Positions 28,223 to 48,735 of a stretch of DNA of 64,000 nucleotides are shown here, in pieces. Within the stretch, counting starts at the first letter, position 1. Each line of letters opens with the position of its first letter. This stretch comes from Glaciecola sp. MH2013. GTDB lineage: Bacteria; Pseudomonadota; Gammaproteobacteria; Enterobacterales; Alteromonadaceae. Under the pieces are notes generated by a model. The model made no database searches. It was not told the origin of the DNA and was given only the letters and a program-made list of their open reading frames with translations. The translations under genes were made by a program, and so were the position numbers. The DNA lies in assembly GCF_015595035.1 (NCBI RefSeq), contig NZ_JADNRN010000002.1, forward strand, positions 262,647-326,646, given 5' to 3'.

Positions 28223-28376
28223 CTTCTCTTAATTACACAATTTCCCTAGGCAGCTATTTATTGCTCTCAATATGGTGCTTATTCTTGAAAAGGTGGGATT
28301 ATTCACCCTTATTCAACTAGAATTCTTAGCATGACTTAACAAGAATAGCGTCGTGTATTTAGCTTTGGAGAGCAGT

Positions 28377-29090
28377 ATGAAATTTGGTGATTACCTTCGC
28401 ACTTGTCGAGAAGAAAAAAATTGGACTCAACCAGAGGCCGCCGCAAAAATTGAAATAGAGCAGTCTTACTTGTCGAAACTGGAAACGGGGAAGTCGTTTC
28501 CATCAGAAGATATTTTTGAGCGGCTTGTCGATATTTATAAAATAGATTTAGATAGCTTCTACGCCAAGATTCATAATGATGAGTTGGAAAAACTCAAGAG
28601 TTTGAAGCAGGTGAGAAGTGCCATATTAAGGCAAAATAACCAACAGAAAAAAGATGAGCGTATTTGGTTGATTTGTGGCTTGGTTATGTTAATTGTTGGC
28701 GGTGCCTCCCTTGGTCATGCACTTATTCCTCCACAAGCTACAACAGAAAATCTTTATCGTTCGCAGGGTGAATTAAATCCCGACGAAGCGCTTGATACTT
28801 TTAGTGTTCTGAAAATGCGCCCTCCTGCAGAAGTGCAAGGCATAGACAATTCAGAACAAAGAGCACGACAAAAAGAGCTACTAAAGCGTATCCATCAATT
28901 AGAAGAAAGAACTTATGATGACCGAGGGGACGCTTACGTGAAAAAAACACTGGCTGGGCGCCGCTATTACGAGAGAGTAAGTAGTCGTACGGTAATGCGC
29001 TATTCTGGCCACAAGTGGTTCTTGATCCCTGCATGTGCGTTTTTGCTGGGCGCGCTTGGCAGTTTTTACATCAGTCGCCGATGGAAGTAG
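28377..29090 (+). CDS. membrane-anchored XRE-family HTH transcriptional regulator
   Basis: ATG 28377 behind SD GGAGAG; HTH GDYLRTCREEKNWTQPEAAAKIEIEQSYLSKLETG; two predicted TM helices (WLICGLVMLIVGGASLG and WFLIPACAFLLGALGSFYI); convergent with rtcA. Confidence 0.65.
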   Translation: MKFGDYLRTCREEKNWTQPEAAAKIEIEQSYLSKLETGKSFPSEDIFERLVDIYKIDLDSFYAKIHNDELEKLKSLKQVRSAILRQNNQQKKDERIWLICGLVMLIVGGASLGHALIPPQATTENLYRSQGELNPDEALDTFSVLKMRPPAEVQGIDNSEQRARQKELLKRIHQLEERTYDDRGDAYVKKTLAGRRYYERVSSRTVMRYSGHKWFLIPACAFLLGALGSFYISRRWK

Positions 29091-29122
29091 CATAAAACTA
29101 GTTTAGGGTTGTTTTTGTTCCT

Positions 29123-30154
29123 CTATAAGTTAACTTTCCACAGCATATCGTTAACTTGGGTAATTTCTATATTACAGCCCAATATTTGCTTAATAACGGC
29201 AATATTCGTTGTTGTGTGTAAGCTTGGTTTTGTTGTTGTAAAACTGCCGCTCCCAGCGATAGCAATTAAGATAAGCAACTGGTCGGCGAGATACTCTTCT
29301 ACGGCGGCTTTGGCATGTATGAACTTATTTACTCGTCCCACAGCACGTTTGGCAACTTTCTCTGATGATAAGCCATGCTCGCCAACAACCTCAAATATAC
29401 TACGATGAGTTTGGCTTTGAATGCTAAGCTGGAAGCTGTTACCAGGGCCAGGAGAATCTATCTGGTGAACTTGATTTAAGGCGTTCTGCCAACCAAGAAG
29501 CTTCTGAGCCGTGGCAATTTCTCTTTGGCCTATGCTGACTGGCAATAAACTCACCAAGGCATCAAGAGAACAGTTGTCTATATCGTTAGCGAAGTCGCCA
29601 CCCGAATCACTTAAGAAAAAAGGCTTGAGTGTTACAGATGGCTTCACATTAAGTTGCCATTTACCGCCGCCAGCAGGATAGAATCCCAGTTTTGAAGTAC
29701 TGACGCGACAATTTACCCCCATACCTTTTATTAAGGGCAAATATGATTGCTCGAAAAAGCTTAATGAAGGAGACATACCATTGTGTGTGCCGCCCTCAAA
29801 TACGACTGTTGAACTTTCTTTTGCCAAGGATAACACTGGTAAAATGGTCTGGCAGACCAATGTGGTACTTCCGGCGCTGCCAATAGCAAATCGATAATTC
29901 CCTGGTTTAACAGTGCGTGGTGAGAACCGAATTCGAGTAGCTCCCAGTTCCACACCTTCTGTTATAGCATCAGAAACCTCTTGTGCTGCCAAAACAGAAG
30001 TAAGGTGCTGACGTAATAGTCCAGGCTTTTTCCGACCAGCACGAATATTTACTAATTCAATATTCTGCTGGGTAAACATCGATAAAGTCAGGGCTGTTCT
30101 TAGCACCTGACCACCACCTTCTCCTTGAGCACCATCAATTATCATATAGTCCAT
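29123..30154 (-). CDS. rtcA: RNA 3'-terminal phosphate cyclase
   Basis: MDYMIIDGAQGEGGGQVLRTALTLSMFTQQNIELVNIRAGRKKPGLLRQHLTSV matches the RtcA N-terminus; 343 aa. Confidence 0.9.
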   Translation of the reverse strand: MDYMIIDGAQGEGGGQVLRTALTLSMFTQQNIELVNIRAGRKKPGLLRQHLTSVLAAQEVSDAITEGVELGATRIRFSPRTVKPGNYRFAIGSAGSTTLVCQTILPVLSLAKESSTVVFEGGTHNGMSPSLSFFEQSYLPLIKGMGVNCRVSTSKLGFYPAGGGKWQLNVKPSVTLKPFFLSDSGGDFANDIDNCSLDALVSLLPVSIGQREIATAQKLLGWQNALNQVHQIDSPGPGNSFQLSIQSQTHRSIFEVVGEHGLSSEKVAKRAVGRVNKFIHAKAAVEEYLADQLLILIAIAGSGSFTTTKPSLHTTTNIAVIKQILGCNIEITQVNDMLWKVNL

Positions 30155-30172
30155 TTTAACTCCTTATAACTA

Positions 30173-31396
30173 TTAACCTTTTACACAAACAATTTGCTTC
30201 AAGGTATAAACGACTTCAACAAGATCCTTCTGTGCTTCCATAACCTTTTCGATGTCTTTGTATGCGTGTGGTATCTCGTCTATGACTGATTCGTCCTTCC
30301 TACATTCAACACCTTCGGTCGCAGCAATTTGATCTTTCACATTGTAAATCTTCTTGGCTTTAGTTCTCGACATCACACGACCAGCACCGTGGCTGCAGCT
30401 ATTAAAGCTTTCTGGATTTCCCAAGCCTCTTACGATGAAAGAGCGAGCGCCCATACTTCCTGGAATGATCCCCATTTCGCCTTTTTCAGCCCTTACAGCC
30501 CCTTTTCTGGTAACGTAGCATTCTTTGCCAAAGTGACGTTCGCGCGAAATATAATTATGGTGACAATTTACAGCAAGCTCAGCAGTCGAAAATGGCACTG
30601 GCAACTGTTTTCGTAACGCAGCTATTGCATTGAACATCATAACTTCACGATTTTTCGCTGCGAAGTCTTGAGCCCACTCTACGGCTTCAACATAGTCGTT
30701 GAAATAGTCGCTTCCCTCCTCAAGGTAAGCCAAGTCCATATCCGGCAGGTTTATTTGATGGCGCTGCATTTCTTTCTTCGCTAATTCAATAAAATAGCTA
30801 CCAATGCGGTTTCCAACACCGCGACTACCTGAGTGAAGCATTATCCACACAGCATCATTTTCATCTAAACAAAGCTCCAAAAAGTGATTCCCTGTTCCCA
30901 TCGTGCCAAGGTGTTTAACGTTGTTACTTTTCTCGATCGCCGGGTGCTTGGCGCAGATCCGTTCAAAGCGAGCTTGCAACTTCAACCACTCTCCGGCAAC
31001 AAGGTCTGGAATGTTATGCCAAGCACCTCTATCTGCTCGCCCTCGACCACTTGTTCTACCATGGGGAACGGCTGCCTCAAAAGCGTGCCTAATTGCAGAT
31101 AAGTTATCAGGCAACTGGCTAGCCTTTAGGGTTGTTTTAGTTGCTACCATGCCGCAACCAATATCAACACCAACAGCAGCTGGTATAACAGCATCAACAG
31201 ATGGAATAACACTCCCAATCGTTGCGCCCTTGCCTAGATGTACGTCTGGCATCACTGCAATGTGCGAATGTACCAGTGGCATTGATGCTATATTTTTTAA
31301 TTGCTGCTGAGCTTTTTCTTCAAAAGGGACTCCCTTAGTCCACGCTTTGATTGGTGCGCTTCCTTCATTCTCTATCACGTTGTAGTTCTTACACAT
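30173..31396 (-). CDS. rtcB: RNA-splicing ligase RtcB
   Basis: 407 aa; ...KAWTKGVPFEE...HIAVMPDVHLGKGATIGSVIPS...GTMGTGNHF...HSGSRGVG...HGAGR metal- and GMP-binding motifs. Confidence 0.95.
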   Translation of the reverse strand: MCKNYNVIENEGSAPIKAWTKGVPFEEKAQQQLKNIASMPLVHSHIAVMPDVHLGKGATIGSVIPSVDAVIPAAVGVDIGCGMVATKTTLKASQLPDNLSAIRHAFEAAVPHGRTSGRGRADRGAWHNIPDLVAGEWLKLQARFERICAKHPAIEKSNNVKHLGTMGTGNHFLELCLDENDAVWIMLHSGSRGVGNRIGSYFIELAKKEMQRHQINLPDMDLAYLEEGSDYFNDYVEAVEWAQDFAAKNREVMMFNAIAALRKQLPVPFSTAELAVNCHHNYISRERHFGKECYVTRKGAVRAEKGEMGIIPGSMGARSFIVRGLGNPESFNSCSHGAGRVMSRTKAKKIYNVKDQIAATEGVECRKDESVIDEIPHAYKDIEKVMEAQKDLVEVVYTLKQIVCVKG

Positions 31397-31423
31397 TATA
31401 ATTTCCTTAAATATTCTTTTTTA

Positions 31424-32578
31424 TCAAGCTATGTTGACGGTGCCATTCATTAGGCCTTCCAAGCCACCGTAAACAGTCAAGCTATCAATTCTTTCAGCCA
31501 CCTTTTCAAGGGCTTCGAGCTCCTTTAGCCGCATCAATGTTGGGTTGTTTTCCATGACTTTTGCGGTGTTATGCAAGCTTCTTGTTGCAGAGGTTTCTTC
31601 ACGTCTTTTTATTACGTTTGCCTCTGCCGCTTTTTGCGCTTCGACTACCTGATTCAATATTGCTTTCATCTCACCGGGCAAGATGATGTCTTTCACTCCA
31701 ACACTTACAAGTGATACACCAACATCTGCTAGCCGCTCGAATGCCAGTTCTTTAACTGTCTCATTCACGTACAATTTATCTAACAAAATATCATCCAAAG
31801 ACTTAGTGCCGACGGCTTCCCTCAATGCTAACTGCAGTGCCTTATAAATAAAGTCATCTACTTTATCGACACTACGTGCTGCTAACTCGGCATCATCTAC
31901 TTTGATACTTGCGCTTAAATTAATTCGCAAACTCACTCTGTCTTTGCTCAAAATTTCTTGCCCAGAAATCTCAAGCAATTGAGTTCTACAATCAAAAGAC
32001 TTCAATTCAATGTCGTGATTAAACTGCCAAAACCCATGTTGACCAGGAGATAGCTTTCGCAGCAATTGACCATTTACATAAAGTAAGCCGATATGATTTT
32101 TGTCTACATTCAAATCAGCAATTGGTTTAACTGCTACGGTGCGCTCGCTTCTAATGAGACGTGACGCTGCATTGGCACCAGCTCTGTTGACTAGAAAAAG
32201 CGTTTTATCATCAACATCGATACTTTCATCAATAGAAATTTTTTCTACCCTTATATCGCCAGCATCTTTCCAAAGATATAGATGCTCACTTGGCGCCACG
32301 ATACCTCTGAGTAAATCGTCAACGTAAAGCAAACCCACTTCTGTACTTTTTAGCTTCCAATGAGATATATGCTCTGCGAATACTGTTTGATTACGATATA
32401 AGCGTTCAGCGTTTTTTTCGGAAAAGAACAGGGTATTGATGTCAAAATAGATAAACTCAAATTCATTCTTGATGTCCCAGATTCTGTGTCTTCCTGGTTT
32501 TATTACGCTGTTAAACTGTTGATTTTTGTATGCCAAAACTCTTTGGTTTTCTGCTACTACTAGTGTTTTTATGAACAT
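31424..32578 (-). CDS. cytoplasmic SPFH/band-7 (slipin-like) domain protein, first gene of the rtc operon
   Basis: C-terminal half has the SPFH core and coiled coil (...GVKDIILPGEMKAILNQVVEAQKAAEANVIKRREETSATRSL...). N-terminal roughly 200 aa holds an internal duplication (VGLLYVDDLLRGIVAPSEHLYLWKD / IGLLYVNGQLLRKLSPGQHGFWQFN) and no TM helix. 27 nt upstream of rtcB on the same strand. Confidence 0.7.
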   Translation of the reverse strand: MFIKTLVVAENQRVLAYKNQQFNSVIKPGRHRIWDIKNEFEFIYFDINTLFFSEKNAERLYRNQTVFAEHISHWKLKSTEVGLLYVDDLLRGIVAPSEHLYLWKDAGDIRVEKISIDESIDVDDKTLFLVNRAGANAASRLIRSERTVAVKPIADLNVDKNHIGLLYVNGQLLRKLSPGQHGFWQFNHDIELKSFDCRTQLLEISGQEILSKDRVSLRINLSASIKVDDAELAARSVDKVDDFIYKALQLALREAVGTKSLDDILLDKLYVNETVKELAFERLADVGVSLVSVGVKDIILPGEMKAILNQVVEAQKAAEANVIKRREETSATRSLHNTAKVMENNPTLMRLKELEALEKVAERIDSLTVYGGLEGLMNGTVNIA

Positions 32579-32759
32579 TAAAAAATTCCTTATTTAGTCC
32601 TCTTTGAAGAGGGGGTTAGTAAGTGTTAAGTACTTGTTCGATAAGGGCCTGAAACATAACAACCACGGGGAGCGTCCTGCTTGCCATAGCGCATTTGTTC
32701 TTGGCGTTTACCCAACATTGGTAATCACAACTTACTAACGCTTAGTTACTTATCATTGT

Positions 32760-32831
32760 ATAAAGGATGGGAATTGAACCCATAACCCTCGAATTAAAAA
32801 TTCGATGCTCTACCAATTGAGCTACCTGTAT
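32760..32831 (-). ncRNA. tRNA-like element A (72 nt; Lys-UUU-like anticodon loop; AU-rich acceptor stem; no CCA)
   Basis: Minus-strand read ATACAGG-TA-GCTC-AATTGGTA-GAGC-A-TCGAA-TTTTTAA-TTCGA-GGGTT-ATGGG-TTCAATT-CCCAT-CCTTTAT gives a full cloverleaf with G18G19 and a TTCRANY T-loop; one acceptor mismatch; A1:U72. Confidence 0.75.
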
Positions 32832-32898
32832 TTAAGGAAGGATTCGAACCTTCGCCAATAGCCCTATGCTATTGCTCTATCCTCTGAGCTACTTAAAT
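32830..32898 (-). ncRNA. tRNA-like element B (69 nt; non-canonical anticodon loop CATAGGG with A33; 3-nt variable loop)
   Basis: ATTTAAG-TA-GCTC-AGAGGATA-GAGC-AATAG-CATAGGG-CTATT-GGC-GAAGG-TTCGAAT-CCTTC-CTTAAAT; perfect 7-bp AT-rich acceptor; overlaps element A by 2 nt. Confidence 0.7.
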
Positions 32899-32901
32899 GT
32901 T

Positions 32902-32970
32902 TATTAAGATGGGACTCGAACCCATGACCTTCGAAAAAATTCGATGCTCTTCCTCCTGAGCTACTTAATA
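32902..32970 (-). ncRNA. tRNA-like element C (69 nt; anticodon arm collapsed to TCGAA-TTTT-TTCGA, 4-nt loop)
   Basis: TATTAAG-TA-GCTC-AGGAGGAA-GAGC-A-TCGAATTTTTTCGA-AGGTC-ATGGG-TTCGAGT-CCCAT-CTTAATA; same T-stem as element A; cannot decode. Confidence 0.7.
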
Positions 32971-33060
32971 TCTGTTTGATCAGGTATACGCATTCGCAGA
33001 GCTCAGCGCACCGGGGTGATGTTTTGAATCACACCCACTTAATCAGACGAATAGGTATTT

Positions 33061-33076
33061 ACAAGTCACGTGCCAG
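33061..33076 (-). promoter_or_regulatory. putative sigma-54 (-24/-12) promoter for the tRNA-like, SPFH, rtcB, rtcA transcript
   Basis: Minus strand reads cTGGCACgtgacTTGTa: a perfect -24 TGGCAC with a -12 TTGT (consensus TTGC) at correct spacing. It lies between divergent rtcR and the operon, as in the RtcR-dependent enterobacterial rtc promoters. No other GG-N10-GC candidate in the intergenic region. Confidence 0.35.
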
Positions 33077-33211
33077 CTTTTACTTTTATTTTAAATTTGT
33101 AGTTAAGTTATTGTTTTAATTTACTTAAGTATGTTTTTTTGTGACTTTCGTAGGTTTTTAATTGAAATTCAAAGAATAAAAAAGTACTGTTTTGGATATT
33201 AAAGTATCTAT

Positions 33212-34825
33212 ATGGATAGTGTTGTGAAAGATGTAGTTGTTGTTAGTTTGATTGGCACACAATTAGATTATGTAGGTAAGAGAGTTGACCGATGGGCCAA
33301 GTGGCGACCTAACGTCAGCCTCTGCAGCCAAGATGATTTGGTGATAAATCAGCTTCACCTTTTGCATGATAACCATAGTAATCGTCTCGCTAACGATGTC
33401 ACCGTCGACATTGAATCAGTCTCTCCAGAAACCGAAGTTAGTCTGCATAGTGTTAATTTTCAGAATCCATGGGATTTTGAAGAAGTTTACGCGAAACTGT
33501 TTGATTGGTGCCTTCAGCAAGATTTTGATACCGACAAAAATGACTATTTATTCCATATAACAACAGGGACACATGTTGTTCAGATATGCAGTTATTTACT
33601 TACCGAAAGTCGCCACTTCCCAGGTCGTCTCATTCAGACATCACCTGATCATAACAATAAGAACAAATCGATTGGTCGGATACAAATTATCGATTTAGAT
33701 CTATCTAGGTATGATCAACTCGCGACGAGATTTGATGTTGAACACCAAGAAGGTAAAGAGTTCTTAAAAGGGGGCATTGAAACCAAAAATAAAGATTTTA
33801 ATAATCTCATTGGGCAAATTGAGAAAGTGGCGATTCGCTCAAAAGATCCGATGTTACTCACCGGACCTACAGGTGCAGGAAAGAGTCAGTTAGCTACGCG
33901 AATATTTCAGCTAAAAAAGAAACGTTCAATGCTGAAAGGCACGCTAGTGTCGGTGAACTGCGCGACCTTGAAGGGTGAAAATGCTATGGCCGCATTGTTT
34001 GGCCACACAAAGGGCGCTTTTACTGGCGCTTTAAAAGCGAGGGATGGGTTTTTACTTACTGCGAATGAGGGGGTTCTTTTTCTAGATGAAATAGGTGAGC
34101 TTGGTTTGGAAGAGCAAGCCATGCTGTTACATGCGATTGAAAACAAGAGCTTTCATCCTGTTGGAAGTGATGCAGTAGTTAACAGTGGTTTTCAACTCAT
34201 TGCAGGCACGAATAAAAATCTGAAGGAGGAAATTAAAAAAGGTGCTTTTCGAGAAGATTTGCTTGCGAGAATAAACCTTTGGACATACGAACTACCAGCT
34301 CTTAAAGATAGGAAGGAAGACATTCCTGCAAATGTTGATTATGAGATTGAGTTGTATTCCCAAAAGTCGGGGCATCGAGTGCAGTTCAATAAGGAAGCTA
34401 AAAGTCGTTTTATTGGCTTTGCAGTATCTAATAAAGCCACATGGTCTGGAAACTTCAGAGATTTAAGCTCGGCAATAACACGGCTTTGCACCTTGGCAGA
34501 TTCATCAAGAATTACTATTGCAGATGTTGAAGACGAGATTGAGAAATTAACGCGCGCTTGGAGTTCATCGGGTGAACAAACTCACACTGATATTTTAAAT
34601 AGCTATTTATCAACAGAGCAGATTCAGCAACTTGATAAGTTTGATGCACAACAACTGAGTTATGTTTTGGCGGTTTGCCAGCGACACACTAGCATGGCAT
34701 CTGCCGGCAGAGAGTTGTTTGATGTTAGCCGAACATTTAAATCTCAACCGAATGATTCAAGTCGTTTACAAAAGTATTTGAATAAATTTGGTTTAAAGTG
34801 GAGAGATATCCGAAGTATCGATTGA
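33212..34825 (+). CDS. rtcR: sigma-54-dependent transcriptional activator RtcR (CARF, AAA+, HTH)
   Basis: 537 aa. N-terminal CARF-like VVVSLIGTQLDYVGKRVDRWAKWRPNVSLC; Walker A GPTGAGKSQLA; GAFTGA sigma-54 contact motif; near-colinear with E. coli RtcR as recalled. Confidence 0.9.
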   Translation: MDSVVKDVVVVSLIGTQLDYVGKRVDRWAKWRPNVSLCSQDDLVINQLHLLHDNHSNRLANDVTVDIESVSPETEVSLHSVNFQNPWDFEEVYAKLFDWCLQQDFDTDKNDYLFHITTGTHVVQICSYLLTESRHFPGRLIQTSPDHNNKNKSIGRIQIIDLDLSRYDQLATRFDVEHQEGKEFLKGGIETKNKDFNNLIGQIEKVAIRSKDPMLLTGPTGAGKSQLATRIFQLKKKRSMLKGTLVSVNCATLKGENAMAALFGHTKGAFTGALKARDGFLLTANEGVLFLDEIGELGLEEQAMLLHAIENKSFHPVGSDAVVNSGFQLIAGTNKNLKEEIKKGAFREDLLARINLWTYELPALKDRKEDIPANVDYEIELYSQKSGHRVQFNKEAKSRFIGFAVSNKATWSGNFRDLSSAITRLCTLADSSRITIADVEDEIEKLTRAWSSSGEQTHTDILNSYLSTEQIQQLDKFDAQQLSYVLAVCQRHTSMASAGRELFDVSRTFKSQPNDSSRLQKYLNKFGLKWRDIRSID

Positions 34826-46963: not shown

Positions 46964-48124
46964 ATGGGCAATTCCGTCCAAAAATTATCAAATAATGTCA
47001 GCCTTGTTGCGTCTACGAATACGTGGATAGAGAGTCTGGCGATACAACAGATGTTAAAAACATCCGAACTTAGAGGTATGCGAGCGGTTGCTGGCATGCC
47101 CGATTTACATCCAGGAAGAGGCTACCCGATTGGTGCTGCTTTCTTCAGTACGAGGCGTATTTATCCAGCTTTAGTTGGTAACGACATTGGTTGCGGTATG
47201 GCGCTTTGGCAAACAAGTGCGAAGGTAAGCAAGGTTAACCTTGATAAGTTAGCAAAGAAATTTGAGCATGTAGAACAAGCGCTGGATGCATCATGGAAAG
47301 ATTTAATCGCTAGTCGAAAGAAGACCAAGGACATTGAAAGCAGCCAATTCGATCATGCCCTAGGCACAATTGGTGGCGGCAATCATTTTGCAGAGTTTCA
47401 AGCGATTGATGAGATTTATGATGCTAAAGCAATTGAAGAGCTTGGGTTGAGCAAGAAACACTTACAACTGTTAGTTCACTCCGGTTCTCGAGGTCTTGGT
47501 CAGTCTATACTTGTCGAGCATATTACTGAGTACAATCACGATGGTTTGTGCGAGTCGCAAGTCGACTTTACCGACTATATGCATAAGCATGATGAGGCTG
47601 TGCGCTGGGCAGAACTCAATCGCGAATGTATTGCGCTTCGCTTTTTGAAGGCAATTAGAGCTAAGGGGCAATGTTCACTGGATGTAAACCATAACTTGGT
47701 GTCGGCCAAAATCATTGATGGTCACCATGGTTGGTTGCATCGTAAAGGGGCTACGCCAAGCGATCAGGGTTATGTTGTTATACCGGGTTCTCGAGGTGAC
47801 TACAGCTATTTAGTTAAGCCAACGCCCTCTGAAAATAGTGAGTTGAGTCTATATTCTCTTGCTCATGGGGCGGGTAGAAAGTGGAAGCGTGGAGAGTGCC
47901 AAGGTCGCTTAAGTCATAAGTACAAACGTGATGACCTCTATCGTACTGAACTAGGCAGCAGGGTGGTATGTGGTAACAAGGAGCTTTTATACGATGAAGC
48001 GCCTCAAGCATATAAAAAGTGTGAAACAGTTATTGCCGACATGCTTGATGCGGGCTTAATCGAATTGGTTGCGCGCCTGCGACCTGTACTCACCTTCAAA
48101 ACTAATGGGAGCTGCTCCTCATGA
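46964..48124 (+). CDS. rtcB2: RtcB-family RNA ligase paralog (RtcB2)
   Basis: 386 aa; [17 protein letters not shown]...[10 protein letters not shown]...HSGSRGLGQ...AHGAGRK RtcB motifs. 4-nt ATGA overlap with prfH. Confidence 0.85.
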
Positions 48125-48735
48125 TGCTATTGCAATTATCAGCAGGACAAGGGCCAATCGAGTGTTGTAAAGCACTGGGTTTGGCTCTGGCCAAAATAGA
48201 AAAAGACGTAGCGCAACAGCAAATGAAAATGGAGCTGATTAACAGAGTACCTGCAGCTGAAAAGGACTGTTACAAATCCATTTTACTGCAGTTTGAGGGC
48301 GCTTCGGAACAGGTTATTAGTTATCTTCAAAGTTGGCAAGGAGCGCTCCTTTGGGTTTGCCAAAGTCCATATCGGCCAAAGTATAAACGTAAAAATTGGT
48401 TTTTCAGTGGTGAGGTATTTGAACTCAATAGTAGCGAGTTCGATCCATGTATTGAATACAAGGCATGCCGAGCATCTGGGGCTGGTGGTCAACATGTTAA
48501 TACCACTGACTCGGCTGTTCGTGCTACTCACTTGCAAACGGGATTAAGTGTTCGAAGCGAGAGCGAACGAAGTCAACATGCTAATAAGAAAATGGCACGT
48601 ATACTCTTATATCAAAAACTTGAAGAACAAAAACAAATCAACCAAACTCAGGATGAGAAACAGCGTTGGATGCAACACTGGGAGCTGCAACGTGGCAATC
48701 CCGTGAGAAGGTTCAAAGGGAGTAAATTTACTTAG
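48121..48735 (+). CDS. prfH: peptide chain release factor H (RF-H)
   Basis: 204 aa; GGQ motif in [29 protein letters not shown]; short RF2-like without the full codon-recognition domain; coupled to rtcB2. Confidence 0.85.

Follow-up and report, generated by a model that had tools for sequence, protein, structure and literature searches.

In this study, an RNA-repair locus was analysed in a stretch of 64,000 nucleotides (nt) from Glaciecola sp. MH2013 (contig NZ_JADNRN010000002.1, positions 262,647 to 326,646), which is referred to as the window and whose own numbering is used throughout. The locus consists of the regulatory gene rtcR and, divergent from it, a sigma54-type promoter element, a leader with tRNA-like modules, a gene for a soluble SPFH/band-7 protein of 384 amino acids (slipin), rtcB and rtcA, in this order. 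Its genes and their layout, the promoter element, the protein fold and the conserved association of slipin with tRNA-like RNA, RtcB, RtcR and RlaP are consistent with an operon for RNA repair under RtcR/sigma54 control, of the type "Band-7 plus band-7-associated tRNA", in which slipin and the tRNA-like RNA would serve as scaffold or cofactor. To this reading as a whole we give about an even chance. The arrangement itself, rtcR divergent from an SPFH-rtcB-rtcA operon with a 27-nt gap and no Rsr, had been described in a first-pass annotation of this DNA, and the open reading frames (ORFs), coordinates and family scans bear it out.

The linkage was quantified in a survey of 80 loci, one genome per species, with slipin relatives that were 38-76% identical. 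These loci came from Gamma-, Beta- and Alphaproteobacteria and from one bin labelled Chloroflexota, and 55 of them had at least 5 kb on both sides (full-flank loci). ARAGORN placed a tRNA-like element within 700 nt upstream of slipin and on the same strand in 65 of the 80 loci, and the Rfam tRNA model added at least nine more, giving at least 74 of 80; for two of the loci that lack such an element, there is no upstream sequence. RtcB was recurrently found beside the orthologs (46/80 loci; 35/55 full-flank loci). Linkage to RtcR was found in 30 of the 80 loci, to RtcA and to the RlaP nucleotidyltransferase (PF10127) in 17 each, and to an HNH endonuclease in ten. The commonest order among the RtcR-linked loci was that of the window, namely rtcR and then tRNA-like element, slipin, rtcB and rtcA, and a variant order was rtcR and then rtcB-rtcA-tRNA-like-slipin. 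Moreover, the slipin-proximal tRNA-like elements (n = 80) were compared with the true tRNAs of the same loci (n = 139). The CCA end was encoded in 28 of 80 of the former and in 132 of 139 of the latter, aberrant anticodon loops occurred in 17 of 80 against 1 of 139, and the GC fraction of the acceptor stem was 0.44 against 0.68. By these sequence measures, the slipin-proximal elements are a class distinct from the true tRNAs beside them.

A sigma54 promoter is predicted ahead of the operon. The element is separated from the rtcR ATG by 137 nt and is located approximately 90 nt upstream of the first tRNA-like module. Over the 64-kb window the pattern alone is not significant (2 matches, 3.3 expected), but each of the ten closest loci (L001-L010) has the sequence TGG[CT]A[CT]-N5-TTG in the corresponding place, and the element aligns across five genera. 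From the promoter to the end of rtcA, no terminator-like site was found on the minus strand. The slipin stop codon is separated from the rtcB ATG by 27 nt, which contain an AAGGA Shine-Dalgarno sequence, and the 18 nt between rtcB and rtcA also hold one. Because of the shared sigma54 promoter, the lack of terminators and these short gaps, slipin appears to be part of the rtc transcription unit. The co-regulation with rtcBA that the first-pass annotation had assumed is thus likely, as the slipin gene shares the sigma54 element and no promoter or terminator of its own was seen. In addition to the matches in Table 1, RtcR matched Pfam RtcR PF06956 (E = 3e-80), Sigma54_activat PF00158 and AAA_lid PF25601, as well as NCBIfam NF038308 (762 bits, cut-off 650), and was assigned by PADLOC to the class RtcR--CARF_AAA_HTH. 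The RtcB of the window is 76-90% identical to that of loci L001-L009. No Rsr gene is present in the operon, whose genes are slipin, rtcB and rtcA, and no TROVE match appeared among the families listed (25 of 57) for the 17 long ORFs of the window that were scanned.

Between the promoter and the slipin gene lies a structured leader of approximately 470 nt with three tandem tRNA-like modules (32970-32758, minus strand), in accordance with the tRNA mimics that the first-pass annotation had placed in the operon. All three modules adopt the cloverleaf as minimum free energy (MFE) fold, and they lack the full set of features of canonical elongator tRNAs: the anticodon-arm loops have 4, 5 and 7 nt, and none of the modules encodes CCA. 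Modules 2 and 3 are not separable genes, as they overlap by 4 nt (32828-32831) and, because of this overlap, cannot both be excised intact. Three modules is the highest count, the 80 surveyed loci having 0 to 2. Neighbouring modules abut or overlap by 1-4 nt in the window and in L001, L005, L006, L037, L040, L041, L059 and L078; therefore, not all of them are excisable as complete cloverleaves, and such abutting modules may work as one rigid multi-module RNA. Y RNAs were also considered. Neither YrlA nor YrlB was found in the window at the gathering score, and YrlA gave only sub-threshold matches of 31-32 bits (gathering score 69). These matches (32874-32929 and 32800-32861, minus strand) straddle the module junctions, where a T-arm followed by the D-arm of the next module probably mimics the permuted order of YrlA, and they were rejected as evidence for a Y RNA.

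The modules are flanked by a conserved 5' leader domain and a conserved 3' leader hairpin (Table 1). The apical stem-loop of the 3' hairpin has the invariant core GCARGC-NGGAN-GCYNCC (32684-32668), with compensatory changes in 6 of its 9 pairs. Its 5-nt loop contains an invariant GGA, and another GGA is found in the slipin Shine-Dalgarno sequence; the loop may be a candidate CsrA-type site. When all 80 loci were searched with a covariance model of the 3' hairpin (R1), matches were obtained in the window and L001-L009 only, which are the ten training sequences, and the hairpin is therefore specific to a marine clade and not a core part of the system. Both flanking structures are confined to the window and L001-L009.

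The 384-amino-acid protein bears the database name "slipin family protein" (Glaciecola sp. MH2013, 100% identical). The first-pass annotation had described it as the lead gene product, soluble and with a C-terminal SPFH/band-7 domain, which agrees with the extent of the Band_7 match (Table 1) and with the finding of no transmembrane (TM) helix or hydrophobic hairpin in the protein; the maximum Kyte-Doolittle mean over 19 residues was 1.49, in a beta strand of the SPFH core. The SPFH domain is followed by coiled-coil helices, and the N-terminal membrane anchor typical of SPFH/slipin scaffolds is not present, the N-terminus being made of beta units. The internal duplication of the N-terminal half that had been noted before was recovered by self-alignment, in which residues 3-72 align with 153-222 (E = 4e-7) and 81-112 with 163-193, and a hidden Markov model (HMM) of the unit found exactly three SPFH1-like units (residues 2-48, 70-117 and 157-199). 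In an AlphaFold2 monomer model built on a 61-sequence alignment (mean predicted local distance difference test score 81), three beta units of five strands, with short helices after each of them, precede a predicted SPFH alpha/beta core at residues 200-299, long helices at 302-344 and 346-363, and a low-confidence tail holding the motif LTVYGG. On the basis of the repeat, the unit HMM and the model, the N-terminal half of slipin consists of two additional copies of the beta subdomain with which the SPFH domain itself begins (SPFH1-like). The earlier statement that this half matched no family holds as far as Pfam and NCBIfam are concerned, which gave none for residues 1-157 even at E = 1 in 26 members scanned; its identity is nevertheless resolved by the SPFH1-like units.

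Using the N-terminal region alone as query, 228 clusters at 50% identity were obtained. In the members of the family, the SPFH core and coiled coil are preceded by 3, 5, 7, 9 or 11 SPFH1-like units, and therefore the expansion proceeded by two-unit blocks. The 3-unit form of approximately 380 residues is by far the commonest, and the number of units rises with length, from about 380 to 894 residues; the members in which this was observed include P0069, P0271, P0168 and P0150. The helices and the C-terminal LTVYGG motif are nearly invariant across the family. A 7-unit member (L082) is also divergent from rtcR, and neither ARAGORN nor Rfam found a tRNA-like element at that locus. Slipins 77-85% identical to that of the window occur across genera and orders (Paraglaciecola, Colwellia, Vibrio, Shewanella, Pseudoalteromonas, Endozoicomonas and an Acidiferrobacterales bin), with the SPFH core and helices almost unchanged, and this similarity across orders points to very strong constraint, to lateral spread in recent times or to the two combined.

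Table 1. Features of the rtc locus in the window (window coordinates).
Feature	Coordinates	Strand	Evidence
rtcA, RNA 3'-terminal phosphate cyclase	29123-30154	-	Pfam RTC and RTC_insert; NCBIfam NF003246, 380.6 bits (cut-off 352)
rtcB, RNA 3'-phosphate/2',3'-cyclic-phosphate ligase	30173-31396	-	Pfam RtcB PF01139, 427.6 bits, E = 8e-128, residues 32-407
Slipin, soluble SPFH/slipin protein of 384 amino acids	31424-32578	-	Pfam Band_7 PF01145, E = 1.2e-28, residues 158-328 only
Conserved 3' leader hairpin, about 125 nt, outer stem GUUAGUAAGU/ACUUACUAAC	32615-32739	-	MFE fold; compensatory changes in the outer stem
tRNA-like module 3	32758-32831	-	ARAGORN Lys(ttt); Rfam tRNA 70.1 bits; Lys(UUU)-like 7-nt anticodon loop; no CCA
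tRNA-like module 2	32828-32898	-	ARAGORN Leu(tag); below Rfam gathering score; cloverleaf MFE fold with 5-nt anticodon-arm loop; no CCA
tRNA-like module 1	32901-32970	-	ARAGORN "tRNA-???" with 2-nt anticodon; Rfam tRNA 58.8 bits; cloverleaf MFE fold with 4-nt loop; no 3' CCA
Conserved 5' leader domain, outer stem around two hairpins	32973-33049	-	RNAalifold, 24 pairs, 3 with compensatory changes, in an alignment of only 5 strongly conserved sequences (window and L001-L004)
Predicted sigma54-type -24/-12 element TGGCACgtgacTTGTA	33060-33075	-	One mismatch to TGGCAC-N5-TTGCW
rtcR, sigma54-dependent activator with N-terminal RtcR/CARF-type sensor, AAA+ domain and lid	33212-34825	+	Pfam, NCBIfam and PADLOC

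By analogy with Salmonella, tRNA damage would yield fragments with 2',3'-cyclic phosphate ends, which would cause RtcR to fire the divergent sigma54 promoter; such activation of RtcR by tRNA fragments ending in cyclic phosphate has been reported (PMC7790460). A single transcript would then carry the structured leader with its three tRNA-like modules followed by slipin, rtcB and rtcA. As other SPFH proteins do, the anchor-less slipin would most likely form a soluble ring or dome, held together by its coiled-coil helices and conserved C-terminus, and the wall of this ring or dome would be lengthened by the two extra SPFH1-like units. Together with the tRNA-like RNA, this assembly would bring damaged tRNA-shaped substrates and RtcB/RtcA together, which would parallel the role proposed for Rsr and YrlA in the Salmonella-type operon. 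We infer the co-transcription, the induction by tRNA fragments, the oligomerisation, the RNA binding and the contact with RtcB; likewise, the gene context and the ring- or cage-forming habit of SPFH proteins suggest that slipin may be a scaffold for RtcB/RtcA or for the RNAs, or may take the place of Rsr.

The locus shares with the Salmonella rsr-yrlBA-rtcBA operon the divergent rtcR, the sigma54 promoter and the placement of a protein and a tRNA-mimicking non-coding RNA (ncRNA) ahead of rtcBA. However, the Salmonella operon encodes the TROVE/Ro60 protein with YrlA/YrlB, whereas the window has an SPFH protein instead, and the Y RNA presents a permuted tRNA-like domain on a Ro-binding stem, whereas the RNAs of the window are whole cloverleaves. 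Compared with the cage-forming SPFH proteins (stomatin, prohibitin, HflK/C, QmcA, erlin and flotillin), slipin has no membrane anchor and has two extra N-terminal SPFH1-like units; moreover, the genomic partners of slipin are RNA-repair genes and not NfeD or FtsH.

In the abstract of their 2016 work, Burroughs and Aravind are said to have described TROVE and SPFH/Band-7 modules as "potential scaffolding cofactors" with cognate ncRNAs. A later preprint (Wang et al. 2018, bioRxiv 10.1101/312249, citing Burroughs & Aravind 2016) places RtcB beside a protein of the Band-7 family and a predicted b7a-tRNA (for "band 7-associated") in certain bacteria, and presents the pair as an alternative to Rsr/Y RNA beside RtcB. 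According to the same preprint, b7a-tRNA and YrlA sometimes exchange protein partners, and b7a-tRNA is unvalidated experimentally (10.1101/312249). The locus resembles this module in its Band-7 protein, the tRNA-like ncRNA immediately upstream and the adjacent RtcB, in the place of Rsr/YrlA. It differs by its three tandem tRNA-like modules between two clade-specific leader structures, and RlaP, a frequent neighbour in related loci, is absent from it. Furthermore, the Pseudomonas aeruginosa ortholog PA14_60630 (PaFlo8) was reported in 2026 to be embedded in an rtc locus (PMC13086221). As in the window, this slipin gene (PA14_60630/PA4582) lies within an rtc locus with rtcR, rtcB and rtcA; the Pseudomonas family members L040, L041 and L059 are approximately 41% identical to the slipin of the window, and one database homolog is named after PA4582. 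The PaFlo8 locus belongs to another clade and is without the leader structures of the window's clade.

The novelty implied by the first-pass annotation was thus overstated, as the Band-7 protein and b7a-tRNA beside RtcB are attributed to Burroughs & Aravind 2016 (10.1101/312249) and an ortholog within an rtc locus was known (PMC13086221), and its scaffold interpretation is a restatement of a published hypothesis. Operons of this type, which are common across the Proteobacteria, had been predicted as early as 2016. The locus is an ordinary member of the type, which adds detail in the form of three modules and a conserved leader architecture and no new principle. What is new here is the SPFH1-unit nature of the N-terminus with its odd-numbered expansion, the highest module count, the clade-specific leader and the quantified linkages.

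Several observations weigh against a scaffold or cofactor acting with RtcB and RtcA. In 18 of the 55 full-flank loci, the tRNA-like element and slipin occur with RtcB absent within 5-6 kb. In Citrobacter freundii (L081, NZ_CP151862.1) and Mangrovibacter (L079), rtcR is divergent from slipin-RlaP and both rtcB and rtcA are absent, and therefore RtcR can control slipin without ligase or cyclase. The loci lacking rtcBA mean that the slipin/RNA unit is not strictly dependent on a cis-encoded ligase, and these variants identify the tRNA-like/slipin pair as the constant core, with RtcB as a frequent but optional partner. In addition, the anticodon of the tRNA-like element varies between loci and is not conserved, and slipin is near neutral, with a net charge of -5 and no obviously basic domain. 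The structure predictions of slipin are monomer models only, and the oligomer and its contacts with RNA and RtcB are postulated. Finally, deletion of PaFlo8 gave no phenotype in assays of growth, virulence factors, motility, biofilm and oxidative stress, among which RNA damage was not included (PMC13086221). Because of the loci without RtcB, the near-neutral charge and the variable anticodons, there is room for the tRNA-like modules to be nuclease decoys or signal amplifiers, for the leader to act in cis, or for slipin to be a stress protein with no RNA role.

In the decoy explanation, the tRNA-like modules are bait for anticodon nucleases that either soak up the nuclease or, once cut, feed cyclic-phosphate fragments that keep RtcR active, and the slipin assembly sequesters or protects the module RNAs instead of scaffolding the ligase. 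The modules would be made only from the RtcR promoter and stand first in the transcript, the anticodon loop of module 3 is a perfect one of the Lys(UUU) type, the wide variation of anticodons between loci is as expected in an arms race, and the slipin unit lies beside long tRNA arrays in many loci. Published suggestions point the same way, namely that YrlA's tRNA-like domain could competitively inhibit a nuclease (Hughes et al., PMC7790460) and that array tRNAs, when induced by stress, serve as sponges for toxin RNases (Santamaria-Gomez et al., PMC8421152). However, the shortened or lengthened anticodon loops in two of the three window modules and in 17 of 80 elements elsewhere should make poor nuclease substrates, YrlA was not cleaved in Salmonella (PMC7790460), and the conserved SPFH partner would be left without a reason; the decoy explanation is unlikely on balance. 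That the same modules are simply genuine tRNAs for translation, as in the long stress-induced arrays, is scarcely credible: their cloverleaf folds would fit, as would the Rfam tRNA scores of two of them (70 and 59 bits), which exceed the gathering score by far, but CCA is encoded in none, two anticodon loops have 4 and 5 nt, the 4-nt overlap precludes intact excision of both modules 2 and 3, and the slipin-proximal elements are, as a class, sharply different from the tRNAs of the arrays at these loci.

The leader could instead act in cis, so that the 5' domain, the GGA-loop hairpin and the tRNA-like modules between them govern how well the slipin-rtcBA mRNA is translated or how stable it is, for example by way of a CsrA-type protein or by the sensing of factors that bind tRNA, and are not a trans-acting partner of slipin. 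Covarying conserved structures directly upstream of the slipin Shine-Dalgarno sequence, the invariant GGA in a 5-nt apical loop with a second GGA in the Shine-Dalgarno sequence, and the constant position of the elements upstream of slipin on the same strand would all be explained. This is nonetheless decidedly improbable, since the flanking structures occur in one clade only (window and L001-L009) and the tRNA-like/slipin pairing is nearly universal, and since in the rtcB-rtcA-tRNA-like-slipin operons the element comes after rtcBA and ahead of slipin only. We consider it very improbable that slipin functions in membrane or protease quality control in the manner of classical SPFH proteins and merely shares the RtcR regulon, with no RNA role. 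All solved relatives are membrane-associated scaffolds, the database names of the family refer to an HflC-like protease regulator, and PaFlo8 was studied as a flotillin-like protein (PMC13086221); yet slipin has no TM segment or hydrophobic hairpin and is almost always paired with a tRNA-like RNA, and no recurrent NfeD or FtsH was found in the 80 neighbourhoods, where the recurrent genes (RtcB, RtcR, RtcA, RlaP, HNH and tRNA arrays) are all RNA-linked.

A more speculative form of the slipin assembly was also considered, in which the family forms a soluble vault-like capsule of two half-shells paired at their N-termini, as in the major vault protein (MVP), with walls of 3 to 11 stacked SPFH1-like units; the capsule would hold the tRNA-like RNA inside, and perhaps also RtcB, RlaP or damaged tRNAs. 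The half-shells could pair in this way because no membrane closes the open end of the SPFH dome. The layout of units, core and helix in the slipin family may resemble that of MVP, in architecture only, and is not taken as homology; the MVP repeat domains (Pfam Vault), which lie N-terminal to the shoulder, were not found in slipin, and a literature search returned nothing relevant on vaults in connection with Band-7 and Y RNA or on bacterial SPFH proteins that resemble vaults. Such a capsule is a long shot; if it exists, it would be a bacterial ribonucleoprotein compartment devoted to RNA repair, functionally analogous to the vault of eukaryotes.

The Band-7/tRNA-like branch of RNA repair is widespread, being found in Alteromonadales, Vibrio, Shewanella, Pseudomonas aeruginosa, Burkholderia and some Enterobacteriaceae. 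Slipin, as an SPFH protein that needs no membrane, varies in its number of wall units and almost always comes with a tRNA-like partner, is a concrete target for purification, and it offers a direct way to ask how bacteria organise the repair or protection of tRNA under attack by toxins or phages. A link to defence systems was not supported, as slipin, RtcB and RtcA had no PADLOC match. Against a phage collection, slipin gave one weak partial match only, and its whole-protein matches in a plasmid collection were to chromids, megaplasmids or records as large as a chromosome (0.4-4.8 Mb).

In loci without RtcR, the tRNA-like/slipin pair adjoins long tRNA arrays of up to 28 tRNAs (L018, L020, L022, L031, L038, L049, L060, L064, L066, L075, L077 and L080), often with HNH in between (10 loci) and sometimes with RtcB near. 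These slipin-linked arrays resemble the cyanobacterial stress-induced "L-arrays" with HNH and rtcB, for which an SPFH partner is not mentioned (PMC8421152). In the close relatives L001, L002 and L007-L009, the RlaP nucleotidyltransferase gene directly follows rtcA, and in the window the region downstream of rtcA (28353-29122) holds a convergent HTH-domain gene (28353-29090, plus strand) and no RlaP. Moreover, a second RtcB paralog, of the release-factor-associated type (TIGR03073, 536 bits; NF007153, 559 bits), is encoded at 46964-48124 on the plus strand, and it overlaps by 4 nt with an ORF of 204 residues resembling class-I release factors and containing the GGQ motif (48121-48735, plus strand). 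These two genes (46964-48735) look like an rtcB2-prfH ribosome-rescue pair, located approximately 12 kb from the rtc locus.

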